Source of the DNA: an uncultured Collinsella sp.
GTDB lineage: Bacteria; Actinomycetota; Coriobacteriia; Coriobacteriales; Coriobacteriaceae
Direction of reading: 5' to 3'
NCBI GenBank assembly: GCA_902475375.1
Contig: CABRZC010000002.1
Location: 3,024 to 67,023 of the forward strand
Length of the DNA stretch: 64,000 nt
Numbering within the stretch: the first letter of the stretch is position 1; the number at the start of each line of letters is the position of its first letter. The notes under the pieces were generated by a model. It did not search any database. It had not been told where the DNA came from and saw only the letters and a list, made by a program, of their open reading frames with translations. A program made the position numbers and the translations under genes. Positions 957 to 21,426 of the stretch are shown here, one piece after another.

Positions 957-1994
957 ATGAGTGGCATGGACCGACATAGCGAGCTCCAGCAGCACAAGAC
1001 GGCGGCCGAGTACCGCCAAGCTGCCGACGAGCACGTGCGGACCCTCAAGGATTTCTGGAAGGATTTCCTGGTGAGCGGTCTGTTTGTGCTGGCCGCCATC
1101 GTTGCCATCTTTGCATGCCTGGCCTGGTTTGCCGCGAACAATCGAGTGAGCGCCACGGGGAGCACGATCGGGGCGAAGGCGGGGCGGTACACGCTGACCG
1201 CCGCGGGCGAGGGTGAGTCCGGCGCACACGTGGGCTATTACGAGCGCTCCGAGCGCACGCCCGAGGAAAAGGATGCCATCGATCGCCTGGATACGACCGA
1301 CGCCATGACGGTAACACTCGGCTCCAACCTGAACAACGAGACCGCAGGCTCTCTGTACCCGGGTGCTCGCGGCAAGATTACATTTACGGTGAAGCCGCTG
1401 GTGAGTGACCTGGACGGGGTCACGATCAATCTGTCGCGCTTGCTTAAGGTCACGAACATTGTTGGCGTTGTTGGGGACGGAGGAACGCTGGCGCCCGAGG
1501 CGGAGGCGCTCCTTGGCTTGATCAAAGGCCATGTACTGTTCTTTACGAGCTGCGACCAGAACGGGTATTACTCGGGCCGCGTGATTGATAGCAAGATCGG
1601 GATTCACAAGAGGGCATTTTGCGAAAACGGCGATGTGACCAGGCCAACGAACAAACCCGTCACCATCAATCTGTACTGGGTATGGCCGGAGTACTTTCAG
1701 AACTTCGTCCTTACCGGCAACACGAATTACTACAAGAATCTGTTTGCGGCGGCGGGCGACGCCAAGTCTGACTACGGCGCTCTGCAGGCGGACATGAACG
1801 CGCATAAAGCGAACTACTTCTATGGCGCGGCAAACGGCACAAGTGCTGCCAACGCTCCTGCGGTTTCGTCTAGCATGTCCTTCAACGACACCGCCATCTG
1901 CTCGGCGCTGTACAACAATGCCGACGAGCAGATCGGCAATAAGGTCAAATACATCCAACTTAGAATTAGCGCTCAGGAGGGCGTGAGCTCATGA
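957..1994 (+). CDS. exported/membrane-anchored protein, candidate TasA/SipW-type signal anchor (P1)
   Basis: 345 codons. A charged N-terminus is followed by a single hydrophobic helix (LVSGLFVLAAIVAIFACLAWFAANN). The remainder is beta-rich and N/T/G-rich, with a LYPGARGKITFTV segment. The stop codon overlaps the next start (ATGA at 1991-1994). Confidence 0.6.
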   Translation: MSGMDRHSELQQHKTAAEYRQAADEHVRTLKDFWKDFLVSGLFVLAAIVAIFACLAWFAANNRVSATGSTIGAKAGRYTLTAAGEGESGAHVGYYERSERTPEEKDAIDRLDTTDAMTVTLGSNLNNETAGSLYPGARGKITFTVKPLVSDLDGVTINLSRLLKVTNIVGVVGDGGTLAPEAEALLGLIKGHVLFFTSCDQNGYYSGRVIDSKIGIHKRAFCENGDVTRPTNKPVTINLYWVWPEYFQNFVLTGNTNYYKNLFAAAGDAKSDYGALQADMNAHKANYFYGAANGTSAANAPAVSSSMSFNDTAICSALYNNADEQIGNKVKYIQLRISAQEGVSS

Positions 1995-2782
1995 GCACCA
2001 TGCAAACGCGCCTCGGCGATGCCCGCAATTGGATAGAAAACCACCGCGCACAGGCCCTTGCGGTCCTGATATTGCTGGCGGCAATCGCTCTTATCATCGG
2101 CTTGTCGCTCTCGTGGTTTGTGGGCAGCAAAAGTCTGTCTACGGTGGGCAAGATCCAAACGCCCGCGCAGCTTAAGATCATGGGTCCCAACCAGACAAGC
2201 ATTGAGCCCGTCGAGATTTCGTATGACGAGTCGCGCGGCGATGTTAAAAACATAGACGGCACCGTGACCATTCGTCGCGCGTTTTGTGTGCAGAGCGACA
2301 ATGGCGATCCCGCTGCCGGCGGTCAAGCGTTTGAGCTGCAGGTTGCCAACACAACGAATATCACGGGGCTGACGATCAACGTATATCACGTGACGGTCAA
2401 TAATCCGAACGATAAAAACGGCACCGTGGTCGGCCTCGACGGGCTCAACAATCCGTATTCGTGGAGTAAGGGCAAACTAATTTCGTTCGACTTTATCAAT
2501 AGGGATGAGACAAACGGCCTGGCTAAAGAGCTCGCCAGCAATGATCCAACGTACGGTACTTATAAGGACGTCCAGAAAAACGCCCGTCCGCTGTATCGGT
2601 ACCACGTGTTCCAAAAAGACGATCTAGACGGTTGGAATGGCACGAAAGCCAACGATGCCACCAACTTTATTGTTGAGTGCACGTGGAACGCGGATGGCGT
2701 AACCGTGGGTGGTGCCAAGGTCTCAAACGTCAAAGAGACCGACATGGTCTACCTAATCGCTCGCGGCACGAGCGGCAACTAA
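1991..2782 (+). CDS. exported/membrane-anchored protein, candidate SipW-type signal anchor (P2)
   Basis: 263 codons. The SD sequence AGGAGGG lies about 10 nt upstream. One N-terminal helix ends in LSLSWFVGSKS. The start overlaps the P1 stop, suggesting translational coupling. Confidence 0.65.
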   Translation: MSTMQTRLGDARNWIENHRAQALAVLILLAAIALIIGLSLSWFVGSKSLSTVGKIQTPAQLKIMGPNQTSIEPVEISYDESRGDVKNIDGTVTIRRAFCVQSDNGDPAAGGQAFELQVANTTNITGLTINVYHVTVNNPNDKNGTVVGLDGLNNPYSWSKGKLISFDFINRDETNGLAKELASNDPTYGTYKDVQKNARPLYRYHVFQKDDLDGWNGTKANDATNFIVECTWNADGVTVGGAKVSNVKETDMVYLIARGTSGN

Positions 2783-2805
2783 TAGCAGGAAGGGAGGGGC
2801 GCCAG

Positions 2806-3780
2806 ATGAGGAAAGACAAGAACGCACAAAATGAAATCGCAAGGCCTGCCGGAAAGCACTTTGCACAGGTTGATGATCATGCGGCGAAGTCTGCCTTGGC
2901 GGAGCCTGCTGCCCCTAATTCCAAAGTGCGCAAGCGCCTATGGGCGGTTGCGGTGCTGCTATGCGCCGTCGCGATTGTGGCGGGTACCCACCTTACTTAC
3001 ACGGCCTTTTTGGCGGGCGACTTCCTTAAGTCGGTCGCTGTCTCGGGCACGTCACAGGCGCTGTTTGCCTCGGACATGCTTACGGGCTACACGAATGAGA
3101 CGCTGAATGACGAGGGTATTGCCGTCCGAAGCGTCATCGCCGACACGAGTGGGGAAAAGTGCTCTTTTACCTTTCGCATTTACAACCATCTGCTGGGCGA
3201 CAAGAACAAGGTCAACGACAAGGACGTTAACGCGACGCTGAGCGTGAAGGCGACGGGAACGACAGATTGGAGCATAAGCGGTTCGCCCGCGCTGACGGCG
3301 GGCGGCACGGTCGGCCTTTCCTTCCCTGCCAACAAGGCAACCATGTATACCTATAAGGTTACGTTTTCCAAGGCGGACCTCAACAAAGCATCTTTCACCG
3401 TTAAGGTCCAGGTCGGCTCCAATAGCCCTGGCACCAACCTTAAATGGCTCGCCGCCAAGATTGCGCCCGCCGAACGTGCAGAGGTGACGGCTTCGGGCGT
3501 TTCGGGCGAGTGGGTCGATAAGAACTCGGATATCAACGCTTTCGACGCTTACAACTATCGCGTGACCGTTACGGGCGCGCCAACAAAAATCAAGCTTACA
3601 TGGGGCGACAAGGTTGAGCTTGACCCATTTTTGACGACGAATCATTCCGACGCGACCCTTGATGGAAGGTCGGTTACGTTCACCATGGATCCCGGGTCGG
3701 AGATTATTACCTTTTACCGTGCGACGGATACCGCGCCCGGCAGCTGGGATGACATCGGTGTTACGTGCAGGGCTGCGTAG
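2806..3780 (+). CDS. exported/membrane-anchored protein, candidate SipW-type signal anchor (P3)
   Basis: I chose the ATG at 2806 because AAGGGAGGGG lies 6-15 nt upstream. The track ORF starts at 2677, inside P2. The N-terminus reads KRLWAVAVLLCAVAIVAGTHLTYTAFLAGD, close to the GT.AYF.D junction of SipW-cognate signals. Confidence 0.65.
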   Translation: MRKDKNAQNEIARPAGKHFAQVDDHAAKSALAEPAAPNSKVRKRLWAVAVLLCAVAIVAGTHLTYTAFLAGDFLKSVAVSGTSQALFASDMLTGYTNETLNDEGIAVRSVIADTSGEKCSFTFRIYNHLLGDKNKVNDKDVNATLSVKATGTTDWSISGSPALTAGGTVGLSFPANKATMYTYKVTFSKADLNKASFTVKVQVGSNSPGTNLKWLAAKIAPAERAEVTASGVSGEWVDKNSDINAFDAYNYRVTVTGAPTKIKLTWGDKVELDPFLTTNHSDATLDGRSVTFTMDPGSEIITFYRATDTAPGSWDDIGVTCRAA

Positions 3781-3844
3781 GCCAACCGCAATCGGTGATT
3801 TTGAGACCCCGCACGGGGCATGAGATAGAACGAGGTAGGACCAG

Positions 3845-6800
3845 ATGAGAACGGCAAAGCGCATAACAACCGCATGCCTGACTGCGATCATGATTTTCCA
3901 GGCGCTCGCGCCCTCCACGGAGGTGTTCGCGCAAGAGCTCGACGCCGTTATGGAGGCATCCGTCTCCGCCGCGCGCGCCGCGGGCAACACGGCGCGCTCC
4001 GTACAGGATGCTGTGGCCACCGCGCTGCAAGATGCTGACCAGGCTACATCTGATGATGTCGCAACGACTCCGGGCGCCGACGCTGGCGCCACCGAGGGCG
4101 GCGACGGTTCTACCAACGCTGGCGAATCGCAGGACTCCACGACCGATGGAACCACTAACGGCGATACCCCAACGGAGGGCGACGCGTCCCAAGACGATGC
4201 GGCTGCCGATGAGGGTGCTGCTGACGGAGAACAAGCGGATGACGCGGACGCGGATGCTGCTGATCAGGCAAACACCGCCCCCACCATCGCTACTGTCGAG
4301 GATCTCAGGCACGCGTTGGGTGACGGCAATGTCATCACTGACGACTTGGGCGCCGTCACGGCCATCACCTTCGGATCCAACGCCGACCTTATCGCCATCT
4401 CCAACACCGACCCCGCCATCTACCAGAACGCGAGCATCTACAAGACCGGCTTGAGCGGCGTCGACTTCGACGTGTGCAGCGCGCAGGCCGTGGGCGACCT
4501 GGGCAATCTCGCGTTCCAGGGGTTCGGCAGCGATGCCCACCCCTTCAAGGGTACGCTCGACCTGGGCGGCAGGTCCCTTACCGCCAACAAGACGCTCTTC
4601 AACAACATCGAGCTCAACGATAACAACGGCACCGTAAAGCTCACCTGGAAGGGCACCGATGCTCAGCCCATCGTGGCCGCAAAGGTCACGGGCGCGGGCA
4701 AGACGCTCAGCGCTGCCATTACCGTAGACAAGCCCGAGAGCGGCGATACGAGCGTCGTCAAGCTCACTTCGCCGCTCGTGGGTGAGGTTACGGGCGAGCT
4801 CACGCTTGACGCCACGTATTCGACAAGCGCGAATAGCCCCCTGGCGATTGGCATGCAATCGTCCACGGGCAATCTGGGCCTACTCGCGAACACCCTTACT
4901 GCAGGCGCATCTCTTACGATCGCGGGGCTGAATGGCCTGCCGAAGAGCTTCAACGGCACCCCCACCATCGATGCTACGGGCGCTGGTGCCAATGCCGGCG
5001 GCCTTATTGGCGAGGCAGGCGAGGGGGCTGCCGTCACCCTTGCTTCGAATGTCGATGTTTCGGCACTGAGCGTCGCGGGTAATAATGCGGCGGGCGGCCT
5101 TATCGGTAAGGCGACCAGGCTTACGCTTGCCGTAGATACGGACAACAGCGGAAAAGATGCCTCGGGCAAGGATATCAGTATCAAGCCAGCGCACTCGGTT
5201 GGGTCGTCATCAGCCGGTACGTATGCCGGCGGCCTTATCGGTGACGCCTCGTTTGCCAGCGATTTCACTATCGAGAATGGCACCTTCGATTTTGGCGAGG
5301 GCGTGGCGCTCAGTGTGGCCAACACGACCGCCGCCCCCTCTGTCGGTGGCCTGTTCGGCGTGCTCGACATCTCGAACGGCGATGTGACCGTAAACGGCGG
5401 ATTGTATAAAAGCACGCTGCAAAACGGCGCGGACAACAGCAACAACAACGGCGTGCGCGGGAACTACGGCGGCTTGGTGGGCAAGCTGTGGGGCCAGAAA
5501 TACGGCGACGCACTGCACGCGTTCACGGTGAAGGGTGGCGCTGAGGTGTCGTTTGGCGTGGGCTCTAACGGCAAGCTCGCGTATGCGGGCGGCCTGGTAG
5601 GCTACCTTGGTGAAGGCGGCGGGAGCGACAATGTGTCCGCCGTGGTCATCAGTGGCGCAGCGGTGACGTGTGCAACCTCGGGCTACGCCAGCAACAACGG
5701 CAAATACGGCGGCGCCGTGGGCGTCGTGGACACCAAAAACGTGCTGGAAGTGCGCGGCCTAACGGTCAAAACCGCCAGCGGCGCTACCATCGGCGGCACA
5801 AACGGCGGCTTTGCCGGAGTCGTTGGGTCGTCGTGGCTCGGCATCGTCAAGTTCAGCGGTATCACCGACCTGTCGGATGCCGCCTTCGTGGAAAATGATC
5901 ACACCGCGCAGCTGATTTATGAGAACTTCAATTCACTGATTTTTGCTGCCGGTAGCGGAAGCGACAGAGGTGCCACCGTAGGCGGTACCACGGAATGGCA
6001 ATACAAGCGTCCCTCTAAGCCGGTCAAGATCGATGACATCTACAGCTACGGCCAGGTTATTCGCCTGGGTGATAGTTTTATTACGCTGAACCCGACGACA
6101 CACGAGCTGACTCTACCGGCACCGTTGGAACTGACTAACGGCGTCTATGCTCTAGCCTCGCTTGAGGATTTCGCCAAGCTTGCGATTACCTGGCAAACCA
6201 ACGGCTACTACTCAATGGTCGAAGGCGTTACCGAAAACAATCTGAATGGTTTAAAGTCCTCGACCATTACGGTGAACGGCACAATTGACCTCAAGGGTAC
6301 AGGCCTGACGGGCTTCACTCAGGACCGCGCAAACGACTCGCAAGTTTTCTCGGGTACGTTGAACGGCGGCGGCACGATCAAGCTTGCTGTCGGTGAGCCT
6401 TACGGCATGCGCGGGAACGCCCCTCTGGGCGCCGACGACATCAGTGCCGGCAACGGAAAAATCTACCGTCACGGCCGCCTGGGCTTGTTCGCAGCAATCA
6501 ACGGCGCAGCCGCCAACAGCGAGACTGTCTCCAACGTCACCATCGCTGGCTCCATGAGGTTCGATAACGGCTCGGCAATCGAGGCTGGATCGCTTGCGGG
6601 CGCCATTGCGGGTGGTCTGACGCTGTCTGGCGCAACGTGCGAAACGAATATCGCATGCGATGATACGTTCACCAACGATGTGAACATTGGTGGTATTGCA
6701 GGCAGCGTGTCGGCAGCTTCTACGGTTACGTTTAGGGACAGTAGCAAGGCTCAAGCGAGCATCACTGCAACTAAAACGCTTAATGGCAACAGCCGTATTG

Positions 6801-9800
6801 GCGGCGCCATCGGCTATGTGGGCAATTATGTCTCGACATTCAACGTTACGGGCCTTGAGGTCAGCGGAAAAATCGAGACCGGCAATTGCACCAGCGGCAA
6901 GATTGCCCAGGTCGGCGGTCTTATCGGCTGCATCGCACAGAGCACCTATGGGGCTGATGGGGCAATAGCCAACTCGGCCAAAAAGGACGTTAACATTACG
7001 GGCCTTTCGTTCAACTCGTTCAAGATGGGAGTCGGAAAGAACGGCGATAAGCTCAATGGCGTGGGCGGTCTCTTGGGTTATAGCTGGGGCAACGCGGTCG
7101 TAACTATCGGAGATGACAACATTAACAAGAGTGAAAACTCCTATGCTTTGAAAACGACCAACGCTTCTATAATCGCGACTGTGGATGATTCCAAGGAGCT
7201 TGGCGGCCTTGTATACGCAGCCAGCGGTCACTGGATTATCAACAACTACGCCATCGATCTCTCGGGCACAAAGATTAATGCAGGCGCCGCTCAGACGCTC
7301 GGCGTTCTAGTTTGCCGCGGCTGCAAGGTGGATGATAAGACGACATATGGCGTCGAGAGCTACCTAGGCCTGTACTTGGAGGACAGGGCTTATTGGGATA
7401 CCGCCTATAGGGTGCCCACCGGCGAGGGGGCCATCGTTGCGTCGGGCGTAACGTCCTTCGATGAATGGGTTGGCAGCGGTGTAAAACCAAACAACGGCAG
7501 CAAGCTCATGGACGCCGACTGGAACACGGTCGTTTCGCTACACACACAGAAAAACAAGCTGGACATGGACGGCGATTCCACAAAAGACAACAGCTACCAT
7601 AATCGCTCGTCTTTCGGTCGAAGCCAGAATACGAACGGCAATACCCGCTACTTCTACAACCTCGACATAGCCTCTAAGAATTGTGAAGGCGGCTTTAGTG
7701 GCAGTCAAATCGATACAGCGGACAAGCTGCTCTTATGGTCTGCTTTCTGCTATGCTCCCGCCGGTATTCGTTCGACAATCGTTCCCGATGGTACGACAGG
7801 GCTCGATGATTCCATAACCATAACGGGCACAATCGATTTGGCCGGCTACAGCTACTATCCCACTCAACCGATCGGAGAGGTGACGGTTAATAATGCGGCC
7901 ATCACCTTCTACTACTCCAAGATCAAGGCCGAGCAGAATGGCAACAAGCTAAACTCCGATGCCACCCAGCACGAGAACATGCACTGCGGTCTTTTTCAAA
8001 CGGTGGCAGACGGCGATCTCACAGTAAGCAACGTCACTTTGGGTGGTACCGTTGGGCCCGTTATCAATGACGGAAAGAGCTCTACTGACGCTATTGGCGC
8101 GGGCGGAAGCTCATCGGGCGCGCTCGTGTGCCGCTACGTGTATGGGTCCAGCGACGGCAATGGCACCAAGATTAGAAAGATCTCAATTGATGATCTTACA
8201 CTCAACAATCTGATTGTCGACGGCGCCAACAGCGCCACGGACGCTAACGCCTATATGCCTCTGCTCATCAACGAGATGCAGAAGTACGTGAGCCTGAACG
8301 CGAAGAATATCAAGACTACTGGGTACACGAGTGGCACCAAGGCGGCTACGTCGCTGTTCGGAAAGCTTGGTGTAGGCAGTGAGGCCGATCAGGTGACGGC
8401 GAAGTTTGAGCAAATCAGCTTGCCCAGCCAAGAGAACAATACGATCTTCACCCATGCGAGCCTGCTGGAGAGTTTTGGCTACGGAAGCACGAGCACGGGC
8501 TCTGCGGACTACACCTTTACTAAGGCCGATGGCGATGCGGGCAAGGTGACCTACGGATCCGAGATTGATGGGAGTACGGAGTACCCGGGCAAGCAGCTTT
8601 GGTATTACGACGAAGCGACGTATGGTGCCGTGAGCGGCTATGTGACGGTTGATGGTAAGAAGGACGGTGACGTCAGGCCTTGGTTCGGTGACTACCTTCC
8701 TTATGTTTACAAGGGAAAAGCCGCCGAGGATGGCGTCCAGTATCACGAAATTAAAGTCAACCAGCGCATTCCAAAGCTGGTAATGGGATGTGGTACCTAC
8801 GGCGATCCTTATTCCGTCACAAACGCGGCGGAGATGAATGCCATTGCCAACTACATTAATAACATGACGGCGCTTGACGGCTGGGAGGTCACCATTGTCG
8901 CCGACCAGGGTAGGCTCTGCACTCGCCGCAGCAGCGATCACTCGACCGACAATGAGGTTACGTACGTCTACAAGCAGGCGAACGGTACCGATAATAAATG
9001 GGAGAAGAAGACCGGAGACGCGTCGACCAATTCCCCGCAGACGCTGAGCGACGAAACCATGCACCGCTATATGCAGAGCGCGTATTACAGCATCGAGCCT
9101 ACTGAGGGCAATACGATTACTCTCGACGGCGCATCGTTTGGCGGTTTTGGAAATAGGGCCAACCCGTTTAGGGGCGTCATCGTTGGCAACTTTGGCAGTG
9201 ATAATAAAAACGCAACCATCAAGATAGAGAATAACGAGGGTTCGCTTCGCGGCCTTATTCCCTATAGTTACGGCAGCGTGGTGCGCGATCTGAATATTCG
9301 CTATGTGAACGCGTCGGCGACTATTACTTATTCTGCCAAGGATGCCGACGGCGTTCCGACGGCGTTTTTCGGTGGCGTTGTCGGCTGCATCCTTGGTGGC
9401 GATAACATTATCGATGGCGTGGTCGTTAATGGGACGACGGCCGAAAACCCTACAACGGGATTTACCGTCACGGGCGGTGGCGACAAGCCGCATCTTGTTC
9501 CCATTGGTGGCTACGTCGGTGCCATTGCGGGTGGCGGCGTGATTTTCCGCAATATGGACAAAAGCGGAAAATCTTCCTGGCGTGCTGGAACTGGTGACAA
9601 ATCTCGTGGTCTGGGAAAGGGCAACTTTGATCTCTACAACAATCCCTACGTCGGTCGCGTGATTGATGGCTATGCCTTTAGCGAGGGCTGTAAGGTTGAA
9701 AACGGTAACGCTAACTACCAGATTAACGAGCTCACAAAAAAAAGAACCCCCTGTGTCACCACCACGGGCACCGACAACAAGTACCTCGGCACTAACGCCG

Positions 9801-12800
9801 AGGCTCCTGTGACCATGGTGAAAAACGCCCAGGGCCTTTTGGTGCTCTCGGCCATCATCAGCTCGGGTGCGGGTGCTGGCGCGGCACATACCAACTACTC
9901 CAATAATGGCGTGTTCCGCGGTTCCAAGGCTTACTGGGGCAGCGATTCGCAAGACCCGGCGATATGCGGCTACCTGTTTGGCAACAAGGAATATGGCAAG
10001 GTACGGAATGCTAACTACGCAAATGTGGGCAAGCCTGAGAGTGCTGCCGGCGATTTCGAAATCGCCAAAAACGACGACCAGAAGGCCCCCGGCAAGCAGG
10101 GGTGGCACGGCCCGCTCGACCATGATGACGATGTAAATTCGCCCTACCTGGTGGCGTCCTACGCTGCCGACTACCAAACGGGCTATGTGTGCGCGTCGAA
10201 ATCGATCGGCATGAGCTTGGAGTTCAAGCAGGGCGACACCTACGATATGACCGACTACGGCACGGGGTACGTGGGCCTAAACGGCCGCTACTATTCCAAT
10301 GCCTGCAATTCGAACCAGCCGGGCACCGACCGCGACCGTATTACGCCGCACGTAGCCACGATCGACGGTAACGGCGCCACCATCACGGTGGGTACCGAAG
10401 GCACCGTCTACGGCGTCGTCGAATACGCCGACGACGACTATAAGGTCTCGGGCGTGGGTGGTCTATTCAGCACCGTGATGTTCACCTCCACCAATGTGGG
10501 GCAGAGCGTCACCGCGAACGACGGCGCGCAGGTCAAAGACCTCACCTTTAGCAACTGCAACGTAGCGCTCACCTATATCGACACCAACGGCGAAGCCAAA
10601 CCAGGAGAGGCGCCGAACGACCTTACCGGTGCCGGCCTTTTGGCGGGTGCAACGGCCAACTACGACGACGGCACGTGCGGCATCTACCGCAACGTGCAGA
10701 TGAAGAACTGCACCGTGTCGGGCGCAAAGAGCGTAGGAGGGCTTCTTGGCAGCTCGGGCCGCGCCAGACGAACTACGAGCGAAGACAGAGCCTATATGGT
10801 CGAGTTCGGGGACGGGTGGGGCCCCGCGTATCTCTATGACTGCTCATACACTGGCCTTAACGTCACGGGCGAGAAGAATGTCGGTGGCTATGTGGGTACG
10901 GTCGCCTCGGCGTGCGGTGTGTGGACAACCGCAGGCACAGGGGTGAGCGAAAGGACTGTTGGCAAAAACTCGACCATAACTGCCACAGGGACAGTGCCCT
11001 ACGTGGGCGGCGTGCTCGGCTATGTCGAAAGAAGCGATATCTCGGTCAACACCAACATCGGCACCACCACAGCGGCCCAGTCGTCATGCACGGCGGTCAT
11101 CTCTGGGGTAAACGTGCTAGCCACCGGGTCGAACTCCGATGACCATATGGGCGCCGGCGGCGTGGTCGGACGCGCCCGTGGCGGCGTTATTTCTATGAGC
11201 AACGTGCGCATTGATGGCGGAAACGGCACCGAGAACGCCGTCATCGGCGATAAGGCCGGAACGAACAATAGCATCTACAATGCGGGCGGCCTGATTGGTG
11301 AGGTTACGAGTAGCGGTAGCCCCAACAAGTACTGGTTCGACGACTGCAGTGTCAAGAATGTCAGCATCGCCGGCACCGGCAAATGCTCGGGCGGGCTTAT
11401 CGGCTACTTCTTCAGCAATGTGAATATAGCCTGCAACAACATCGCGATCGAGAACGCTACGATTAAGGGTAACTGGAGCGGCGGTCTGCTGGGCGCGAAT
11501 AACGCGAGTAACAGCGGATCCGTCGTCATCGACGTTACCAACACAAAGGTATCCAACACCACGTTTAGCGAAAGGTCCAACGGCGGCATTATGGGCGACG
11601 GGCGCGGCCAGTTCCATCTGTTAAACGTGCTCATGGACAGCAATAGCTACAATGCGGGCAAAACCCAGGGCGTACTCTTGGGCGAGGTTGACACGGGGGA
11701 TGGTAAGTACAGCCTTTCCGCAGCGGGCGTGGAAGTAAAGCCCGGTAGTGGCAAGACCACGAGCGACCTGCCGCCGATGGTTTACACGACCAATACGAAT
11801 ACGGCTGCTGTTAACGAGAAAACTTATATTGCCTTCGGCGACTACAACGGCACGGCTGCCGCGCCCAACGAGAACAAAACGCTTTACGGCGCAGGCGATA
11901 CTGCTACCACGGCAACGAGTCCGTACGTGACCACGAGGCCCGTGAGCACGATGGCGGTGCGTGCCTCCGACGGCGACACCACCGACCGCTACCTGTTTGG
12001 CGACGGCGCCGCCATTGACACCGCGACGACCATCCAAAGCCAAGCGGGTGCCCGCGTTCCCGGCCGCTACACCTACACCAACATCGCCGGCATCAATGAT
12101 GCCGGCGCATACCAAAACACGAGCACCTATAGCGCGGACAGCTCGCGTAGCACCTATAACGCTAACAACATTACTTCGGACAAGAAGGCCAAAACTGACT
12201 TCCCCGTGCTCGTGATTCCGGGCAACGATACCACGACGGTGGAGAGCTACCTGAACATCGTGACCAATGGCGGCTTCTCCGATGCCTGCCGCCTCAACGG
12301 CAGCACCGCGCATGTGACCGCCACCGCCGAGGTCTTCTCGCTCGCCGATAACGGCACCTTCGTCAAGGACGTAGCCGCCTCGCAAGCGCCCACGCTCAAG
12401 GTGCTCAACAATGGCACGAGCTCTATGGCATTCCGCGCGAGCACCGACTGGGACAATGAGCAGGGGCGCTTCACGCTGCTTACGGTCACCTTTAGCGAGG
12501 CCGGCCAGAGCTATCGTGTACAGGTACCCATCATCGTCAAGCGCATGCTCGAGATCGACTTTACCGCCACCTACTCCGAAGGTGCGAACTTCAAGGCTGC
12601 CGACTATGCGACAAAATACGACAAGCACGTACTTGTGAGCAGCGGCGACACCATGACCGGCTACCTTACCTGGACCTATGGCAGCGCTCGGGGCAAGCCG
12701 GTCGATTACGGCTGGAACACGCTGCTCGAAGCCGGCGGCTCTATGGGTCCGCTCAACAAGAGCATTACCTTCGGTGCCACGCTGCCCGAGGGTACACAGC

Positions 12801-14557
12801 TCACACTCGTGGACACGGCCAACAACAGCCGCGAATATCACTACACGGTGGGCACGGGCGGCGCGACGTCAGTCAAGCTCACCGAGTTTGTGGACGCTGG
12901 CAACAAGGCTTACTACACCGAACCGTGGCTGAGCGAAATCGTGGGCGTGAAGGCCGATGAGGCCAAGGAGGACAAGGACGGCGCTTGGGTCAAGCTCGCC
13001 GATGACGAGGTCAAGGACAAGAGCCAGGCCGAACTCGCGAAGATGGCTGGCGCCAAGGTCGATGGCGCGTACTACCGCGCGCGCACTTCTTCCGACGCGA
13101 CGGGCACGTTCTATACCCTCTCCGTTGATAAGGAAGAGCCCAAGAGCGAAAACTTCTACTTGGTGGTGCGCACGCCGGCGGGGTCCGTGGGCGTCAACGG
13201 CTACACCGCCACCACGGTGGACACGAGCCTCAACGAGCACATCAACTACCTGCTGCGAGGCAAGAAAGCAGCCGACGGCAAGGCTGCCGAGGATGGGCAC
13301 CAGAATACGCCCTCGACCTATAGCGTGGCATCAAACTACACGCACAGCCTCGTTGACAACAAGCGTAACCTCGTCGACAACAGGGACAGCATCAACCGGA
13401 TGGAGCTCAAGGAAGCCACCTATTCGCTTTCCATGAACGTGAGCGACACCGTGACGTTTGACTCGAGCCAGCAATACACGAGCTCTGACGCGCTGTATTA
13501 TCAGCTCGATTCGTCGCTTGTCACCTATCACGACGGCGTCATCGCGGGCTCGGTAGGATACCCCACGGGCACGCAGGGCACGTATGAGTTCTACGTTAAG
13601 GTGGGTGATAACTACTACACCTGGGGCGGGTCGGGTTGGAATCTGGCCGGCACGAAGGAGACCCCAGTGGTGTCGGGCCTTAGTTGGACTGCGAACGGTG
13701 GCGACATGTCACTGGTGCTTGCCGATGCTGAGGGTAATCCCATCGACATGTCGGGCCTGCGCGAGATCGCCAAGAACCATGTCAACGCCTTCACCGTTAC
13801 CATGAGGGCCGCGCTCACCATGACGGAGCCTGCCTGCCAGGCGGGTATCGTGGCCTCGCAGAACAGCGGCACCGACCGCTACACCAAACCCAACTACCGC
13901 GCGTACCTTTCCACGCATGCCGACACGCTCAGCACCAGTAGCAACTCGGCATACAACGATGGCGGCGCCGGCTACTACCGTATGGATGTGGGCTCATCGA
14001 CCATCGCGCTCGAGGCGTCTAAGAAATCCCAGTTGGGCATCAACATCGATGACCTCAAGTCCGCTGACGGCGAGATCGCTCTGGTGGGTACCTACGACCT
14101 GAGCAAGCTCACGGGCGCCGAGGCCATGATCTCCAATGCCAGCACGGTGACCTATACGTTGAGCTTGCAGCGCCGGGGTAAAGACGACTATGCTCCGGTC
14201 GGCGATATCTCAAAGTACATTACGGTGTTCGGTAGCGACAAGCTGGGCGCGGGCTCGTTGAGTGGCAGCAGCTACGTTTTTACCGACACCAAGGCTGGCG
14301 ACACGTTTGCCACGCGTGACGGTAACAGCCTTGCCTTTAAGCATGCCTTCCGCGTTAAGGTGAACACCGATGTTGAGACGGCTGGTCAGACCTATGCCAA
14401 CTATCGTCTGGTGCTAACGGCCAATATGTCCGATAACGGTGTAATAAAGGACACGCCAGTCAATGTCAGCAACCTCGGAGGCTATAAGAACTCCGACTAC
14501 GTGACGTACACGCTGTCGCGCATCAACACCAAGGGCATTCCCCACGGGTCCAACTAG
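3845..14557 (+). CDS. giant secreted surface protein (3570 aa) with GLUG-like repeats
   Basis: Uninterrupted 10.7-kb ORF. It has a Sec signal (MRTAKRITTACLTAIMIFQALAPSTEVFA/QE) followed by an acidic D/A/T/G-rich tract. More than 20 GG[LIV][LIVA]G motifs (AGGLIGE, VGGLLGY, NVGGYVGT and similar) fall in two blocks at about nt 4990-7230 and 9360-11610. The C-terminal third is beta-rich and has no LPXTG motif or terminal TM helix. Confidence 0.9.
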   Translation: MRTAKRITTACLTAIMIFQALAPSTEVFAQELDAVMEASVSAARAAGNTARSVQDAVATALQDADQATSDDVATTPGADAGATEGGDGSTNAGESQDSTTDGTTNGDTPTEGDASQDDAAADEGAADGEQADDADADAADQANTAPTIATVEDLRHALGDGNVITDDLGAVTAITFGSNADLIAISNTDPAIYQNASIYKTGLSGVDFDVCSAQAVGDLGNLAFQGFGSDAHPFKGTLDLGGRSLTANKTLFNNIELNDNNGTVKLTWKGTDAQPIVAAKVTGAGKTLSAAITVDKPESGDTSVVKLTSPLVGEVTGELTLDATYSTSANSPLAIGMQSSTGNLGLLANTLTAGASLTIAGLNGLPKSFNGTPTIDATGAGANAGGLIGEAGEGAAVTLASNVDVSALSVAGNNAAGGLIGKATRLTLAVDTDNSGKDASGKDISIKPAHSVGSSSAGTYAGGLIGDASFASDFTIENGTFDFGEGVALSVANTTAAPSVGGLFGVLDISNGDVTVNGGLYKSTLQNGADNSNNNGVRGNYGGLVGKLWGQKYGDALHAFTVKGGAEVSFGVGSNGKLAYAGGLVGYLGEGGGSDNVSAVVISGAAVTCATSGYASNNGKYGGAVGVVDTKNVLEVRGLTVKTASGATIGGTNGGFAGVVGSSWLGIVKFSGITDLSDAAFVENDHTAQLIYENFNSLIFAAGSGSDRGATVGGTTEWQYKRPSKPVKIDDIYSYGQVIRLGDSFITLNPTTHELTLPAPLELTNGVYALASLEDFAKLAITWQTNGYYSMVEGVTENNLNGLKSSTITVNGTIDLKGTGLTGFTQDRANDSQVFSGTLNGGGTIKLAVGEPYGMRGNAPLGADDISAGNGKIYRHGRLGLFAAINGAAANSETVSNVTIAGSMRFDNGSAIEAGSLAGAIAGGLTLSGATCETNIACDDTFTNDVNIGGIAGSVSAASTVTFRDSSKAQASITATKTLNGNSRIGGAIGYVGNYVSTFNVTGLEVSGKIETGNCTSGKIAQVGGLIGCIAQSTYGADGAIANSAKKDVNITGLSFNSFKMGVGKNGDKLNGVGGLLGYSWGNAVVTIGDDNINKSENSYALKTTNASIIATVDDSKELGGLVYAASGHWIINNYAIDLSGTKINAGAAQTLGVLVCRGCKVDDKTTYGVESYLGLYLEDRAYWDTAYRVPTGEGAIVASGVTSFDEWVGSGVKPNNGSKLMDADWNTVVSLHTQKNKLDMDGDSTKDNSYHNRSSFGRSQNTNGNTRYFYNLDIASKNCEGGFSGSQIDTADKLLLWSAFCYAPAGIRSTIVPDGTTGLDDSITITGTIDLAGYSYYPTQPIGEVTVNNAAITFYYSKIKAEQNGNKLNSDATQHENMHCGLFQTVADGDLTVSNVTLGGTVGPVINDGKSSTDAIGAGGSSSGALVCRYVYGSSDGNGTKIRKISIDDLTLNNLIVDGANSATDANAYMPLLINEMQKYVSLNAKNIKTTGYTSGTKAATSLFGKLGVGSEADQVTAKFEQISLPSQENNTIFTHASLLESFGYGSTSTGSADYTFTKADGDAGKVTYGSEIDGSTEYPGKQLWYYDEATYGAVSGYVTVDGKKDGDVRPWFGDYLPYVYKGKAAEDGVQYHEIKVNQRIPKLVMGCGTYGDPYSVTNAAEMNAIANYINNMTALDGWEVTIVADQGRLCTRRSSDHSTDNEVTYVYKQANGTDNKWEKKTGDASTNSPQTLSDETMHRYMQSAYYSIEPTEGNTITLDGASFGGFGNRANPFRGVIVGNFGSDNKNATIKIENNEGSLRGLIPYSYGSVVRDLNIRYVNASATITYSAKDADGVPTAFFGGVVGCILGGDNIIDGVVVNGTTAENPTTGFTVTGGGDKPHLVPIGGYVGAIAGGGVIFRNMDKSGKSSWRAGTGDKSRGLGKGNFDLYNNPYVGRVIDGYAFSEGCKVENGNANYQINELTKKRTPCVTTTGTDNKYLGTNAEAPVTMVKNAQGLLVLSAIISSGAGAGAAHTNYSNNGVFRGSKAYWGSDSQDPAICGYLFGNKEYGKVRNANYANVGKPESAAGDFEIAKNDDQKAPGKQGWHGPLDHDDDVNSPYLVASYAADYQTGYVCASKSIGMSLEFKQGDTYDMTDYGTGYVGLNGRYYSNACNSNQPGTDRDRITPHVATIDGNGATITVGTEGTVYGVVEYADDDYKVSGVGGLFSTVMFTSTNVGQSVTANDGAQVKDLTFSNCNVALTYIDTNGEAKPGEAPNDLTGAGLLAGATANYDDGTCGIYRNVQMKNCTVSGAKSVGGLLGSSGRARRTTSEDRAYMVEFGDGWGPAYLYDCSYTGLNVTGEKNVGGYVGTVASACGVWTTAGTGVSERTVGKNSTITATGTVPYVGGVLGYVERSDISVNTNIGTTTAAQSSCTAVISGVNVLATGSNSDDHMGAGGVVGRARGGVISMSNVRIDGGNGTENAVIGDKAGTNNSIYNAGGLIGEVTSSGSPNKYWFDDCSVKNVSIAGTGKCSGGLIGYFFSNVNIACNNIAIENATIKGNWSGGLLGANNASNSGSVVIDVTNTKVSNTTFSERSNGGIMGDGRGQFHLLNVLMDSNSYNAGKTQGVLLGEVDTGDGKYSLSAAGVEVKPGSGKTTSDLPPMVYTTNTNTAAVNEKTYIAFGDYNGTAAAPNENKTLYGAGDTATTATSPYVTTRPVSTMAVRASDGDTTDRYLFGDGAAIDTATTIQSQAGARVPGRYTYTNIAGINDAGAYQNTSTYSADSSRSTYNANNITSDKKAKTDFPVLVIPGNDTTTVESYLNIVTNGGFSDACRLNGSTAHVTATAEVFSLADNGTFVKDVAASQAPTLKVLNNGTSSMAFRASTDWDNEQGRFTLLTVTFSEAGQSYRVQVPIIVKRMLEIDFTATYSEGANFKAADYATKYDKHVLVSSGDTMTGYLTWTYGSARGKPVDYGWNTLLEAGGSMGPLNKSITFGATLPEGTQLTLVDTANNSREYHYTVGTGGATSVKLTEFVDAGNKAYYTEPWLSEIVGVKADEAKEDKDGAWVKLADDEVKDKSQAELAKMAGAKVDGAYYRARTSSDATGTFYTLSVDKEEPKSENFYLVVRTPAGSVGVNGYTATTVDTSLNEHINYLLRGKKAADGKAAEDGHQNTPSTYSVASNYTHSLVDNKRNLVDNRDSINRMELKEATYSLSMNVSDTVTFDSSQQYTSSDALYYQLDSSLVTYHDGVIAGSVGYPTGTQGTYEFYVKVGDNYYTWGGSGWNLAGTKETPVVSGLSWTANGGDMSLVLADAEGNPIDMSGLREIAKNHVNAFTVTMRAALTMTEPACQAGIVASQNSGTDRYTKPNYRAYLSTHADTLSTSSNSAYNDGGAGYYRMDVGSSTIALEASKKSQLGINIDDLKSADGEIALVGTYDLSKLTGAEAMISNASTVTYTLSLQRRGKDDYAPVGDISKYITVFGSDKLGAGSLSGSSYVFTDTKAGDTFATRDGNSLAFKHAFRVKVNTDVETAGQTYANYRLVLTANMSDNGVIKDTPVNVSNLGGYKNSDYVTYTLSRINTKGIPHGSN

Positions 14558-14566
14558 CCACGCAAA

Positions 14567-14598
14567 GAGGCGGCAACCACCCAGTTGCCGCCTCTTTT
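14567..14598 (+). terminator. rho-independent terminator of the giant gene
   Basis: GAGGCGGCAAC-CACCCA-GTTGCCGCCTC gives a perfect 11-bp stem followed by TTTT, 10 nt after the stop codon. Confidence 0.85.
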
Positions 14599-14630
14599 CC
14601 TGCTCGCTCGGACTGCCGCTGCTTCAGCTT

Positions 14631-14742
14631 CCCAACCGTCTTTCCAACTTTCCACTTAACTTACCACCTAAGGTGGAAAGCTGGAAAGTTAAGTGGAAAG
14701 CTGGTAAGTTAGGTGGAAAGTTGGAAAGTTGGGAGGTTCGGC
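14631..14742. repeat. TGGAAAG-heptamer array and hairpin (upstream copy of the direct repeat)
   Basis: 14631-14700 is about 93% identical to 16240-16308. It holds two inverted CTTTCC(A) units, then five forward (T)GGAAAG units plus one degenerate unit at 8-12 nt spacing. A perfect 15-bp hairpin forms from CTTTCCACTTAACTT (14648-14662) and AAGTTAAGTGGAAAG (14686-14700), with an inner CCACC/GGTGG stem. The array runs up to the RBS and ATG at 14743. Confidence 0.85.
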
Positions 14743-16212
14743 ATGAATGAGGAGTGGTTGGCGCAGGTCATCCATCATCTGCGGACAATAGGAAACGACA
14801 CCCAGCAGTACGAAGTAAAAGAGGCCAAGGGCGCGCTCCCCAAAAGCATCGTCGAGACGCTTTCGGCATTTTCCAACGCGCAGGGCGGCTTTATCATCCT
14901 CGGCATTTCCGAAAAGAACGGGTTTATGCCCGTCGAGGGTTTTGATGCCCGCAAGATGCAAGACGCCCTCTCTTCTGCATGTGAAAAGCTGACGCCCGTT
15001 GTGAGGCCGGATATCCAAGTGCTCCCCTTCGAGGGTAAGCTGGTGCTTTGCGCGCGCATCAAAGAAATGCATCCACGCGATAAACCCTGCTATATTGCGG
15101 CACGCGGAATGTACGATTCGTCCTTTATCCGTACGGGCGACGGCGACCGGCGCATGACTCCCTACGAAATCGATCGCTTTATGGAGGAGCATGTTCAGCC
15201 TACATACGACGACGAGCCGGTCGAAGGTGCCACGCTCGATGACCTTGACGCCGATCTTTTGCAAGGGTTTATAAAACGCCAGCGCGAGCTACACCCTAGG
15301 CTTTTGGGCACCAGAAGCGACGATGAGATTCTCCTTGACCTGCATGTGACCAAAAGGGTGGACGACGCAATCGTGCCGACGCTTGCTGCAATTGTCGCGA
15401 TGGGACGGTTTCCGCAAAAGTTCTTCCCACGTCTCAATGTGACCTTTACGGCGTACCCCGGGACCACAAAAACGCAGCGAGTAAGTGATAACAAGCGTTT
15501 TGTGGATTCTCAGACCATTTTGGGTCCGATCCCTTTCATGATTGAGGACGTGCTTGCCGCCGTTGCGAGAAACACCCGAAACGCAGCGGTTATCGAGGGC
15601 GCGTTCCGGAAAGATGTGCCCGATTATCCGCCCGTGGCGCTGCGCGAGGCGGTGGCGAACGCGCTCATGCACCGCGACTACTCTTCCGCCGCGCGCGGCT
15701 CACAAGTGCAGGTCAACCTGTATATCGACCGCGTCGAGATTCTCAATCCCGGCGGGCTGTACGGCGACGTAACGATCGATTCGCTGGGAGTTTCTGGGGT
15801 TTCGTCATCCAGAAACCAGTTCCTTTCAAATATCCTCGAGACCACGCCGTACCCAGACGGTGGCTACGTGGTCGAAAATCGCGGCACTGGTTATCAGGAG
15901 ATAGGTGAGCAGCTCGAGCGGGCAAACATGTTGCCGCCCGAACCAAAGAACTCGACAGTTTCTTTTTCGTTGACGTTCGATAAGCGAAAGATAATGCGGG
16001 CGGAACAGGTGACGTCTGTGGGGCATGTGGACGAGGCAATCTTGGATTACCTGGCAACACATTCTTCGGCTTCGACCAAAGAGCTCACCGACGCTTCGGG
16101 TTTGAGCAGGAGCGCCGTTTCCAACCACATAAAAGGCTTGATTGGTGCGGGCAAGATTGAGGCGATGGAGCCTCCGCGCAGCCCGCGACAACGGTATCGA
16201 CTCGCGAAGTAG
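14743..16212 (+). CDS. Schlafen/AlbA_2 (divergent AAA) domain protein with RecG-C-like HATPase_c_4 region and C-terminal wHTH (COG2865-type)
   Basis: The ATG at 14743 is preceded by GGGAGG; the track start at GTG 14713 lies inside the repeat. The N-terminus (QQYEVKEAKGALPKSIVETLSAFSNAQGGFIILGI) is typical of AlbA_2. The middle contains REAVANALMHRDY. The C-terminal ILDYLATHSSASTKELTDASGLSRSAVSNHIKGLI is a winged HTH. Confidence 0.75.
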   Translation: MNEEWLAQVIHHLRTIGNDTQQYEVKEAKGALPKSIVETLSAFSNAQGGFIILGISEKNGFMPVEGFDARKMQDALSSACEKLTPVVRPDIQVLPFEGKLVLCARIKEMHPRDKPCYIAARGMYDSSFIRTGDGDRRMTPYEIDRFMEEHVQPTYDDEPVEGATLDDLDADLLQGFIKRQRELHPRLLGTRSDDEILLDLHVTKRVDDAIVPTLAAIVAMGRFPQKFFPRLNVTFTAYPGTTKTQRVSDNKRFVDSQTILGPIPFMIEDVLAAVARNTRNAAVIEGAFRKDVPDYPPVALREAVANALMHRDYSSAARGSQVQVNLYIDRVEILNPGGLYGDVTIDSLGVSGVSSSRNQFLSNILETTPYPDGGYVVENRGTGYQEIGEQLERANMLPPEPKNSTVSFSLTFDKRKIMRAEQVTSVGHVDEAILDYLATHSSASTKELTDASGLSRSAVSNHIKGLIGAGKIEAMEPPRSPRQRYRLAK

Positions 16213-20063: not shown

Positions 20064-20075
20064 GAGGCGGCATCC

Positions 20076-20705
20076 ATGGATCATAAAATGTCGCGCTCGC
20101 CGTGGGTTATTCATTACGACGGCTCGAGCTGCAACGGATGCGATATCGAGGTGCTGGCCTCGCTCACGCCGCTGTTCGATGCGGAGCGCTTTGGCGTGGT
20201 CAACACCGGCAACCCCAAGCATGCGGACATCTTTTTGGTGACGGGGTCGGTCAATGCCCAGAACCTGCCCGTCGTGCGCCAGATCTACAACCAGATGCTC
20301 GAGCCCAAGTGCGTGGTGGCCTGCGGTATCTGTGCGTGTTCGGGCGGCGTGTTCCGCGATGCCTATAACGTGATCGGCGGCGTGGACCGCGCGATTCCCG
20401 TGGACGTGTACGCGCCCGGGTGCGCCATTCGCCCCGAGACCGTGATCGATGCCATCGTGGAGGCGTGCGGCATCCTGGACCAGAAGGAGGCCGTGATGCG
20501 CGCCGGCGGCGATCCGCTTACCGTGGGCGGCGCCGCGACCTGGGACGGTGGCGTTGAGCTGGGCGAGGACGGGTTTGTGGCTGCGGGGGCCGGGACTGAT
20601 GGTGCCGGTGACGGCGTCGAGGCCAACGTGTCCACCAGGTCCGCCGCACCCGCCGCTGGCGACGCGCCCGCTGAGACGCCCATCGCTGCAAAGGAGGCCG
20701 AGTAA
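20076..20705 (+). CDS. [NiFe]-hydrogenase small subunit (NuoB/HycG/EchC-like) with low-complexity C-terminal tail
   Basis: The cluster-binding cysteines are present: YDGSSCNGCDIEV, ACGICACSGGVF and PGCAIRPE. About 70 extra G/A/D/E-rich residues follow at the C-terminus. Confidence 0.85.
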   Translation: MDHKMSRSPWVIHYDGSSCNGCDIEVLASLTPLFDAERFGVVNTGNPKHADIFLVTGSVNAQNLPVVRQIYNQMLEPKCVVACGICACSGGVFRDAYNVIGGVDRAIPVDVYAPGCAIRPETVIDAIVEACGILDQKEAVMRAGGDPLTVGGAATWDGGVELGEDGFVAAGAGTDGAGDGVEANVSTRSAAPAAGDAPAETPIAAKEAE

Positions 20706-21421: not shown

Positions 21422-21426
21422 GGTCC

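Follow-up and report, generated by a model that had tools for sequence, protein, structure and literature searches.

The described systems closest to the locus analysed here are the TapA-SipW-TasA system of Bacillus subtilis, with CalY in the B. cereus group, and the SipW-BsaA-BsaB-BsaC system of Clostridium perfringens, which has a role in biofilm formation and adhesion. The locus is a four-gene operon, P1-P2-P3-G, in a 64,000 nt stretch of DNA (the window) from an uncultured human-gut Collinsella sp. (GenBank assembly GCA_902475375.1, contig CABRZC010000002.1, positions 3,024 to 67,023 of the forward strand). P1, P2 and P3 are small proteins with one N-terminal hydrophobic helix each and G is a giant protein of 3570 amino acids (aa). 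In relatives, the cassette is accompanied by genes for a PilZ protein, a bitopic protein (TM331), further small proteins with a conserved signal (AWF proteins) and, at three loci, an archaeal-type signal peptidase I of the SipW type. Taken together, the data suggest, with a probability of about 0.45, that these genes encode a new surface system, a SipW-linked and cyclic di-GMP (c-di-GMP)-associated fibre or adhesin, with P1-P3 serving as the base or adaptor of an exposed giant G.

The present system is like TapA-SipW-TasA and CalY in four respects. The signals have a basic n-region, a conserved h-region and the junction T/small-aromatic-A↓aromatic-F-x-[ND] (the arrow marks the actual or predicted cleavage site throughout); a dedicated archaeal/endoplasmic reticulum-type signal peptidase I lies beside its substrates, here in loci L005, L011 and L012; a membrane-associated accessory of related fold (TapA there, TM331 here) accompanies the secreted subunits; and a conserved, strand-like segment follows the cleavage site, comparable to the donor strand of TasA. 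However, homology to TasA/Peptidase_M73 is neither detectable in sequence nor convincing in structure, and Bacillus has no counterpart of three single-copy subunits with a partner of ~3500 residues. The cytoplasmic tails of P1-P3 are long and conserved, the present system is linked to PilZ and GGDEF genes, and the Collinsella locus has no SipW.

The Bsa operon also has several small SipW-signal proteins together in an anaerobic Gram-positive bacterium, but the Bsa proteins are members of the TasA family, which P1-P3 and the AWF proteins are not; there is no giant partner protein and the peptidase is always within the operon. Chaperone-usher and sortase pili similarly combine an abundant subunit family (here AWF), a few accessory subunits (P1-P3) and one large adhesin (putatively G). 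In contrast to these pili, no usher, chaperone, sortase, LPXTG or pilin motif is encoded in the cassette, the structural matches of P1 are not significant, and an outer membrane is lacking in Gram-positive cells. G resembles Ebh and the GLUG-motif proteins (streptococcal IgA1 protease/Zmp family) in its very large size, Sec signal, allelic mosaicism and a glycine-rich GG[LIV]xG periodicity that suggests a beta-helix. Unlike them, it matches no Pfam GLUG or other domain, its length is fixed (3356-3750 aa) and its architecture collinear rather than dependent on repeat number, it has no transmembrane (TM), LPXTG, SLH, LysM or CWB anchor, and it always occurs with P1-P3. The preliminary description of this locus, made from the sequence alone, knew of no characterised combination of this kind, and the literature that we searched (on SipW, PilZ, Collinsella giant proteins, pRUMAL02 and donor-strand pili) likewise contains no description of such a system.

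Gene order and distribution of the cassette

The cassette consists of the following genes.

957 to 1994, + strand: P1, 345 aa
1991 to 2782, + strand: P2, 263 aa; start codon overlapping the P1 stop (ATGA)
2806 to 3780, + strand: P3, 324 aa counted from the ATG
3845 to 14557, + strand: G, 3570 aa; secreted giant with a collinear, conserved architecture

The P1 family contains 428 clusters at 50% identity (E <= 0.001). In a pattern scan that took one genome for each GTDB species, at least 219 genomes had P1 relatives; the best 80 of these are nearly all labelled Collinsella or Coriobacteriaceae, the exceptions being a few 'uncultured bacterium' bins, one Atopobium metagenome-assembled genome (MAG) and one Treponemataceae-labelled bin. 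P1 is 100% identical in several uncultured Collinsella MAGs and 96% identical in one C. aerofaciens isolate. P2, P3 and the N-terminus of G adjoin P1 in 92, 88 and 86 of 94 loci (L001-L094), respectively, and the rest are truncated contigs. The cassette is syntenic in at least 90 loci, including many Collinsella species. The order P1-P2-P3-G is kept even where P1 is only 22-32% identical and the GC content is 39-49%, in L006/L007, L008, L009-L011 (Hespellia sp. MAG, Lachnospiraceae), L095, L105 and Ruminococcus albus 7, and the distant syntenic loci also include L012, L013, L014 and L106. The host of L006/L007 is taken to be an endospore-forming Firmicute because spoIIGA and sigE adjoin the cassette. 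The synteny in relatives that the preliminary description had proposed as a check is thus strong and extends across two phyla.

In R. albus 7 the cassette lies on the megaplasmid pRUMAL02 (RUMAL_RS20000 to RS19985). The system there (NC_014825.1 280435-296968, equivalent to L108:17661-34194) has an AWF protein (363 aa) and a P1 paralogue (337 aa) that lacks the AWF junction upstream of P1, P2, P3 and G (3750 aa). An IS66 element is located directly downstream, and all genes of this cassette are annotated as hypothetical.

There are 1306 homologues of G at E <= 0.001, and the 120 listed are 3356-3708 aa long. Thirteen diverse members can be aligned over their full length with few gaps, at 28-33% identity. 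Because the lengths are alike and the alignment runs end to end, G is a fixed multi-domain protein and not a variable-repeat adhesin. Public annotation gives the homologues of P1-P3 and G as 'hypothetical protein' with no Pfam family. Searches of Pfam, NCBIfam, PHROGs and PDB sequences gave no match for any of the four proteins, and neither did the alignment of 66 diverse P1 homologues match a known family.

The surroundings of the cassette are often mobile or variable: there are integrases in L004 and L008, and Transposase_31 and IS66 elements beside G in L011 and R. albus. None of 50,697 phage records matches P1, and a phage origin of the cassette was ruled out on this ground. A Collinsella-type P1 (70% identity) in L089 (CAVCKO010000036.1) is filed under a 'Treponemataceae bacterium' bin and is probably a binning contaminant.

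SipW-type signal peptidases adjoin the cassette in some relatives

An archaeal-type signal peptidase I of the SipW type is adjacent in three relatives (L005, L011 and L012), with TIGR02228 scores of 101-105 bits (cutoff 51.85). In L012, the SipW gene at 5805-6809 is directly upstream of P1 and overlaps its start, implying translational coupling. Its product scores 101 bits on TIGR02228 and 98.7 bits on a Bacillus SipW model, and the GSMEP, H and GD motifs are kept. In L005 a SipW gene, whose product is 60% identical to this L012 copy, is also directly upstream of P1. A second L012 SipW (1101-1922) and its orthologue at L011:27064-27792 (60-67% identical) are located beside paralogues of the AWF proteins. 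Since SipW genes are rare per genome and the direct adjacency is repeated, the evidence for a functional link between SipW and the cassette is strong, and the idea of SipW-type signals gains independent comparative support. There was no SipW within 10 kb on either side of P1 in the other relatives, and a search of plasmids gave only unrelated archaeal, Arthrobacter and other matches, with none in the R. albus plasmids.

The SipW gene and AWF paralogues of L012 and L011 are adjoined by a McrBC-like pair (L012:1950-5808 and L011:27785-30200) consisting of an AAA_5 ATPase with an N-terminal membrane segment and a DUF2357 protein. The pair is 62-67% identical between the loci, above the level of the cassette proteins, and could be either a defence insertion or a part of the system.

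PilZ, TM331, AWF proteins and c-di-GMP enzymes

In L106 there are seven contiguous genes in the order PilZ-TM331-AWF-P1-P2-P3-G. Upstream genes of the PilZ/TM331/AWF type are also found in L013, L014, L008 and L105, and a PilZ gene is upstream in L008, L013, L014, L106, L109 and L110. A gene with HD-GYP/GGDEF domains abuts P1 in L010 and L011. These neighbours suggest that the system is probably under c-di-GMP control.

The AWF proteins are small proteins of relatives, ~250-360 residues long; their n-region is short and basic, and they are strikingly alike in their signal, ...KALKKQ..AAIAMV..A..AL.SAT[FY]AW[FY]..NN.V. They are multi-copy in relatives and there is none in the window. The ectodomain of the bitopic TM331 matches the C-terminal domain of the AWF proteins at 90% in a profile-profile comparison (hhalign), and the two have the motif ...V.[VI]W[LF][DE]G.D..C... 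in common. TM331 has no AWF junction; judged by these similarities, it looks like an anchored protein of the AWF fold.

L109-L111 (GC 58-60%) carry PilZ-TM331-AWF-AWF as a locus of its own, from which P1-G are missing. The TM331 cluster of these loci has 2595 member sequences, an abundance comparable to that of the window P1 cluster, and L110 (contig k141_79117) ends in further AWF paralogues, like the run that precedes SipW in L011. This suggests that the window lineage may carry PilZ/TM331/AWF modules elsewhere in the genome.

The N-terminal module of the small proteins

Each small protein has a single hydrophobic segment (P1 33-62, P2 17-49 and P3 41-70), in agreement with the one N-terminal helix per protein given in the preliminary description. 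The parts of P1, drawn from conservation and an AlphaFold2 (AF2) model, and the N-terminal modules are as follows.

P1 aa 1-35: cytoplasmic tail
P1 aa 36-58: TM helix
P1 aa 59-82: strand-like juxtamembrane segment
P1, remainder: beta-sandwich/helix ectodomain
1062 to 1202, + strand: AWF N-terminal module of P1, aa 36-82
2051 to 2200, + strand: AWF-type N-terminal module of P2, aa 21-70

Among 66 diverse P1 homologues the end of the TM helix, A56-W57-F58, is invariant or nearly so and is followed by N61..V64; the invariant residues are W57, P135, G139, H192, F196, W241, W243, D323 and G327. The TM helix of P2 ends in S41↓W42-F43, a junction that is conserved in 16 diverse orthologues as [ST]-x-[AST]-W-[FL]. 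In P3 the helix ends in T-Y-T-A67↓F68-L-A-G-D and a conserved K-x-V-A-V strand follows; P3 orthologues have A-[AIS]-[YF]-[TSL]..N/K..V at this position. The aromatic junctions noted previously (CLAWFAANN, LSLSWFVGSK and TYTAFLAGD) are therefore not a chance resemblance, since they recur in the orthologues of distant loci.

By reading rather than by a calibrated model, the motif small-aromatic-A↓aromatic-F-x-[DN] is present in P1 (CLA↓WFAANN), P2 (SLS↓WFVGSK) and P3 (TYTA↓FLAGD). The AWF junction is SAT[FY]A↓W[FY]..NN, and the mature end of TasA (GTWA↓AFND site) was confirmed against PDB 8AUR. To the eye, the overall format runs parallel to the TasA signal, KKKL...GGGTWA↓AFND. By analogy with TasA, cleavage would fall at A56↓W57 in P1, S41↓W42 in P2 and A67↓F68 in P3. 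Profile-profile comparison shows an N-terminal module of ~55 residues that is common to P1, P2 and the AWF family. The hhalign probabilities are 97.1% for P1-AWF and 95.3% for P1-P2 over ~50-55 columns, and 87.5% for P2-AWF, figures that can be inflated on TM-rich segments; the aligned region runs ~25 residues past the helix. The similarity of P3 to P1, P2 and AWF is weak (13-48%). The module is all that the proteins have in common: BLASTP detected no mutual similarity between the ectodomains of P1, P2 and P3, and it was ruled out that the three are full paralogues. P1, P2 and probably P3 would thus be inserted N-in/C-out by means of an N-terminal module of the SipW-cognate type.

The type IV pilin/pseudopilin pattern G↓F/M...E5 was found in none of P1-P3 or the AWF proteins, and TIGR02537 matched one AWF protein below threshold (E = 0.49, 10 bits, cutoff 20). 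Hidden Markov models (HMMs) of TasA, NF046066 and Peptidase_M73 gave no match to P1-P3 at E <= 1 in Pfam and NCBIfam, and TasA-type family HMMs matched none of 66 P1 homologues or 10 AWF proteins. The P1 and AWF profiles recovered no TasA from all PDB sequences, the P1 profile search being empty. Using a TasA reference identical to 8AUR/5OF1, hhalign of the P1, P2, P3 and AWF profiles gave probabilities of 0.1-3.9%, with only the signal region aligned.

The AF2 model of P1, built from the alignment, has a mean predicted local distance difference test score (pLDDT) of 84.5. It contains one continuous helix (16-61), a low-confidence segment (62-73) and then a beta-sandwich with helices. Residues 62-73 are conserved in sequence yet have low pLDDT in the monomer model. 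A generic sandwich with a conserved but unplaced N-terminal strand would be compatible with donor-strand assembly, although as an inference only. The single-sequence model of P2 reached a pLDDT of 42.

The giant protein G

The following features of G were distinguished.

3845 to 3934, + strand: Sec-type signal peptide, MRTAKRITTACLTAIMIFQALAPSTEVFA↓QE, read from the sequence
4352 to 5944, + strand: first glycine-rich block, aa ~170-700, with GG[LIV]xG every ~30-45 residues (motifs 385-654)
5045 to 8344, + strand: mosaic hypervariable blocks, aa 401-1000 and 1001-1500
8783 to 11794, + strand: central and third repeat region, opening at the conserved GCGTYGDPY (aa 1648-1656), with GG..G repeats at aa 1843-2584
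14495 to 14524, + strand: C-terminal strand motif D-x-x-x-Y-T-x-[AS]-[KR]-[VI], here DYVTYTLSRI

The signal peptide has a close counterpart in the L106 orthologue and is followed by an acidic low-complexity stretch. Public gene callers begin G 15 codons later, at M16 (window 3890 versus 3845), and the n-region of the signal peptide would then be lost. The start at 3845 has a Shine-Dalgarno (SD) sequence and a conserved signal peptide, so the start of G is probably misannotated in many assemblies. There is no 19-mer in G above 1.6 on the Kyte-Doolittle scale, no C-terminal LPXTG and no terminal TM helix, and the C-termini of 13 homologues likewise have no LPXTG or hydrophobic anchor. The hydrophobicity and motif scans thus agree with the earlier reading of an ordinary Sec signal without these anchors. 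No SLH, LysM, CWB or other wall-binding module was found in G. A motif scan of the window gave no convincing sortase signature; the sole match to [TS][LIV].TC is SLSTC in a 184-aa open reading frame (ORF) at 40676 on the minus strand.

G contains 20 GG[LIVAFM]xG motifs in three blocks, with a spacing of ~30-50 residues. The glycine columns (GG..G) of the repeats are invariant in 13 homologues, and the first block is presumed from this periodicity to be a beta-helix. Between the blocks there are motifs that resemble the start of a helix (GFGS...PF.GT and GCGTYGDPY) and non-repeat regions. G had been described as a GLUG-repeat protein, but this is a resemblance only: the Pfam GLUG model (PF07581) has no match to G even at E <= 1, and none to the 13 homologues at E <= 0.01. 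Neither did these 13 match any Pfam family or PDB sequence, and Pfam revealed no catalytic or toxin domain in G or its homologues. A possible metalloprotease motif, HENMH at 1376-1380, is missing from the orthologues and was rejected.

The C-terminal strand motif is located ~10-20 residues from the end of the protein. D3551, Y3555 and T3556 are invariant in 13 diverse G proteins and position 3558 is nearly so; the R. albus orthologue terminates in ...DYLVYTNAKV.... This strand is a candidate sorting or attachment signal.

Among Collinsella strains (L001-L004, L015-L094), aa 401-1000 or 1001-1500 of G fall to 44-65% identity where P1-P3 and the other parts of G stay at 97-100%. Variation in P2 and P3 among strains, from 80% to 100%, is likewise independent of that in P1. 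As judged from the alignments, the mosaicism of G would imply frequent recombination and diversifying selection, a pattern of variation that is typical of an exposed protein. Because it has a Sec signal, no enzyme domain, glycine-rich repeats and mosaic blocks, G is considered to be an exposed surface protein.

Proposed system

We propose that Gram-positive gut anaerobes have a larger surface system, of which the four-gene cassette makes up the conserved distal module. The proposal draws on the synteny, the common N-terminal module, the SipW, PilZ and GGDEF genes linked to the cassette in relatives, and the giants, which form a collinear and mosaic family. The full system would consist of a PilZ c-di-GMP receptor, TM331, one or more AWF proteins, P1-P3 and G (~3500 residues), joined in part of the genomes by a dedicated signal peptidase of the archaeal (SipW) type. 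The AWF proteins are probably the major fibre subunits, and P1-P3, in the role of minor subunits, may form a base or adaptor close to the membrane. SipW would cleave P1-P3, polymerisation would follow, and the base would tether G to the cell or to the fibre of AWF proteins, possibly by beta-strand complementation between the strands next to the membrane and the invariant strand at the C-terminus of G. It is reasonable to infer that the small proteins display or retain G. G itself would be an exposed, antigenically variable element with an adhesive or shielding function, and its expression or assembly is probably controlled by c-di-GMP. A bolder version of this proposal is a new Gram-positive organelle, a c-di-GMP-gated, SipW-processed heteropolymer fibre of non-TasA subunits with the AWF fold, in which P1-P3 attach a beta-helical G by strand complementation. 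We consider this version unlikely.

Evidence against the proposal and alternative explanations

Several results weigh against the proposed system. SipW is present in only 3 of ~10 independent non-Collinsella loci, within the spans examined. There is none in the window (tblastn and an S26 motif scan), which agrees with the preliminary description in finding no SipW-type peptidase or sortase there, and none within 10 kb on either side of P1 in 80 Collinsella loci. The PilZ, TM331 and AWF genes are not at this locus in the window lineage. Physical contact between G and P1-P3 is putative, and the hhalign support for the common module is open to the inflation mentioned above. The conservation of P1 speaks for retention of its N-terminus as an anchor: within Coriobacteriia the tail is 67% and the TM helix 85% identical, as opposed to 39% for the ectodomain (the juxtamembrane strand is at 62%). 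TIGR04088, TIGR04089 and TIGR04090 (NCBIfam) gave no match to P1-P3 at E <= 1, and the best score in this class, for an AWF paralogue (L011:24440-25276), was 12.2 bits, below the cutoff of 19. Of the suggestion that the junctions are like those of SipW-cognate signals, the conserved module and the adjacency of SipW in relatives are therefore in favour, and membership in these three families is not borne out. Finally, Foldseek comparison of the P1 model with PDB and BFVD gave no match at E <= 0.001. The TasA fibre 8aur_A ranked second (E = 0.018, TM-score 0.21/0.30, root mean square deviation 12 Å), mixed among cohesins, pilins, macroglobulin domains and generic beta-sandwiches, and the weak neighbours included FimG, CS20 and type 1 pilus subunits, so that a pilin-like or TasA-like fold of P1 is unproven.

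In a possible, if doubtful, alternative P1-P3 are uncleaved anchors that form a bitopic heteromeric receptor and hold the anchorless G non-covalently, with no SipW processing or polymerisation; the SipW of relatives would then serve the small AWF proteins only. No other part of P1 is as conserved as the tail and TM helix (in 120 close homologues the helix is 100% and the ectodomain 88% conserved), and the best-conserved stretches in the genome scan are the cytoplasmic LK[DG]FWK[RD]F and [EQ]Y[RH][QR][AVT]AD[EA]H. This favours a functional, possibly retained N-terminus, and because the tail and helix outconserve the ectodomain, a retained anchor is no less compatible with the data than a signal peptide that is discarded. 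The n-regions are also long (35 residues in P1, 20 in P2 and 43 in P3, against 8-12 in AWF proteins), helix 16-61 is unbroken in the P1 model, and no Collinsella locus has a SipW near the cassette. However, in L012 and L005 the SipW gene is directly upstream of P1 itself and not of an AWF gene, with the overlap in L012, and the small residues at -1/-3 and aromatic residues at +1/+2 are conserved as in AWF, TasA and CalY. SipW-cognate signal peptides are, moreover, unusually conserved in general, which is the basis of TIGR04088.

A relation of the small proteins to TasA/CalY/BsaA, whose signal junctions the preliminary description had compared with theirs, would make P1-P3 homologues of the SipW-dependent families and G a protein trapped in their polymer, a matrix fibre that we regard as improbable. 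The junctions do resemble the TWA↓AFND of TasA, SipW-type peptidases adjoin in three relatives, 8aur_A is second in the Foldseek comparison and the L012 orthologue of P2 matches the N-terminus of the TasA HMM, although weakly and in the signal region only (E = 0.019, 14 bits, cutoff 450). Against this, neither HMMs nor profiles nor profile-profile comparison (hhalign below 4%) show a similarity to TasA or Peptidase_M73 and the Foldseek match is not significant, so the relation was not upheld. In addition, one copy each of three unrelated ectodomains is more in keeping with adaptor or minor subunits than with a bulk polymer, for which the multi-copy AWF proteins, lacking in the window, are better candidates. 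It is more improbable still that G is a secreted giant effector (a toxin, an enzyme or a phage-defence or decoy protein) with P1-P3 as maturation, export or immunity factors and the SipW/PilZ link as an incidental island neighbourhood. The frequent mobile surroundings described above, the McrBC-like pair beside SipW in L011 and L012 and the failure of domain and PDB-sequence searches to assign a function to G would all suit such a role. But no catalytic or toxin domain was found in G and its lone HEXXH motif is not conserved, the phage records contain no match, the order with PilZ, TM331 and AWF is kept over a large evolutionary distance, and glycine-rich repeats with mosaic variation are typical of exposed structural adhesins.

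Expression signals and neighbouring genes

ORF calls and folding show that P1-P2-P3-G form one operon of four same-strand (+) genes with a strong terminator at its end.

14564 to 14602, + strand: intrinsic terminator closing the operon, a hairpin with a T-run

The stem is a perfect 14 bp (14564-14577/14584-14597) followed by TTTT, with an energy of -27.9 kcal/mol and z = -6.55; none of 200 shuffled sequences folded equally well. There are SD-like stretches ahead of P2 (AGGAGGG, 1975-1981), P3 (AGGAAGGGAGGGG, 2787-2799) and G (GAGGTAGG, 3832-3839), and the mechanical ORF of P3 begins earlier, at GTG 2677. The sequence therefore bears out the layout given in the preliminary description, with tightly packed co-directional genes, the ATG at 1991 overlapping the stop at 1994 (ATGA, 1991-1994), SD sequences before 1991, 2806 and 3845, and a strong terminator. 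Rfam found no RNA (riboswitch or other leader element) in the window, and in six related loci its sole match was a tRNA.

Between the terminator and the next gene, positions 14625-14738 carry dense repeats of GGAAAG-type units, among them a 20-nt unit (AGGTGGAAAGCTGGAAAGTT) present in five direct copies and imperfect inverted repeats of 30-45 nt that are 78-93% complementary. The repeats are just upstream of, and partly within, the 5' end of a gene of the Schlafen-AlbA_2/HATPase_c_4/HTH type (14713-16212), and could serve as an operator array or as a site of recombination. The other flank of the cassette is a gene of the AAA_14/DUF4143 type (ATPase-like; 83-673), and such a gene also adjoins the separate PilZ-TM331-AWF locus in L110 and L111. 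Further downstream, at 17181-22515, there is a gene cluster for an Ech/complex-I-like membrane-bound [NiFe] hydrogenase, which includes a 960-aa Proton_antipo_M and NADHdh fusion as well as Oxidored_q6, Complex1_30kDa and Complex1_49kDa/NiFeSe subunits.

Significance of the system

Few Actinobacteria of the human gut are as prevalent as Collinsella, which have repeatedly been associated with metabolic and inflammatory conditions. To our knowledge, almost nothing is known of their surface. G is probably the largest Collinsella surface protein, and its mosaicism among strains is what one would expect if IgA, phages or host receptors targeted it. R. albus 7, a cultivable and well-studied cellulolytic species, carries the system, which makes experiments feasible. 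If the proposed system is correct, the substrates of SipW-type peptidases would extend beyond TasA-like proteins, and PilZ/c-di-GMP signalling would be tied to a defined surface structure in Gram-positive anaerobes. The organelle version, if true, would mean that a giant mosaic adhesin is displayed independently of a wall anchor in Collinsella, Lachnospiraceae and Ruminococcus. The proposed system, if true, would also answer the question of how a giant protein with no recognisable wall anchor stays on the Gram-positive cell.

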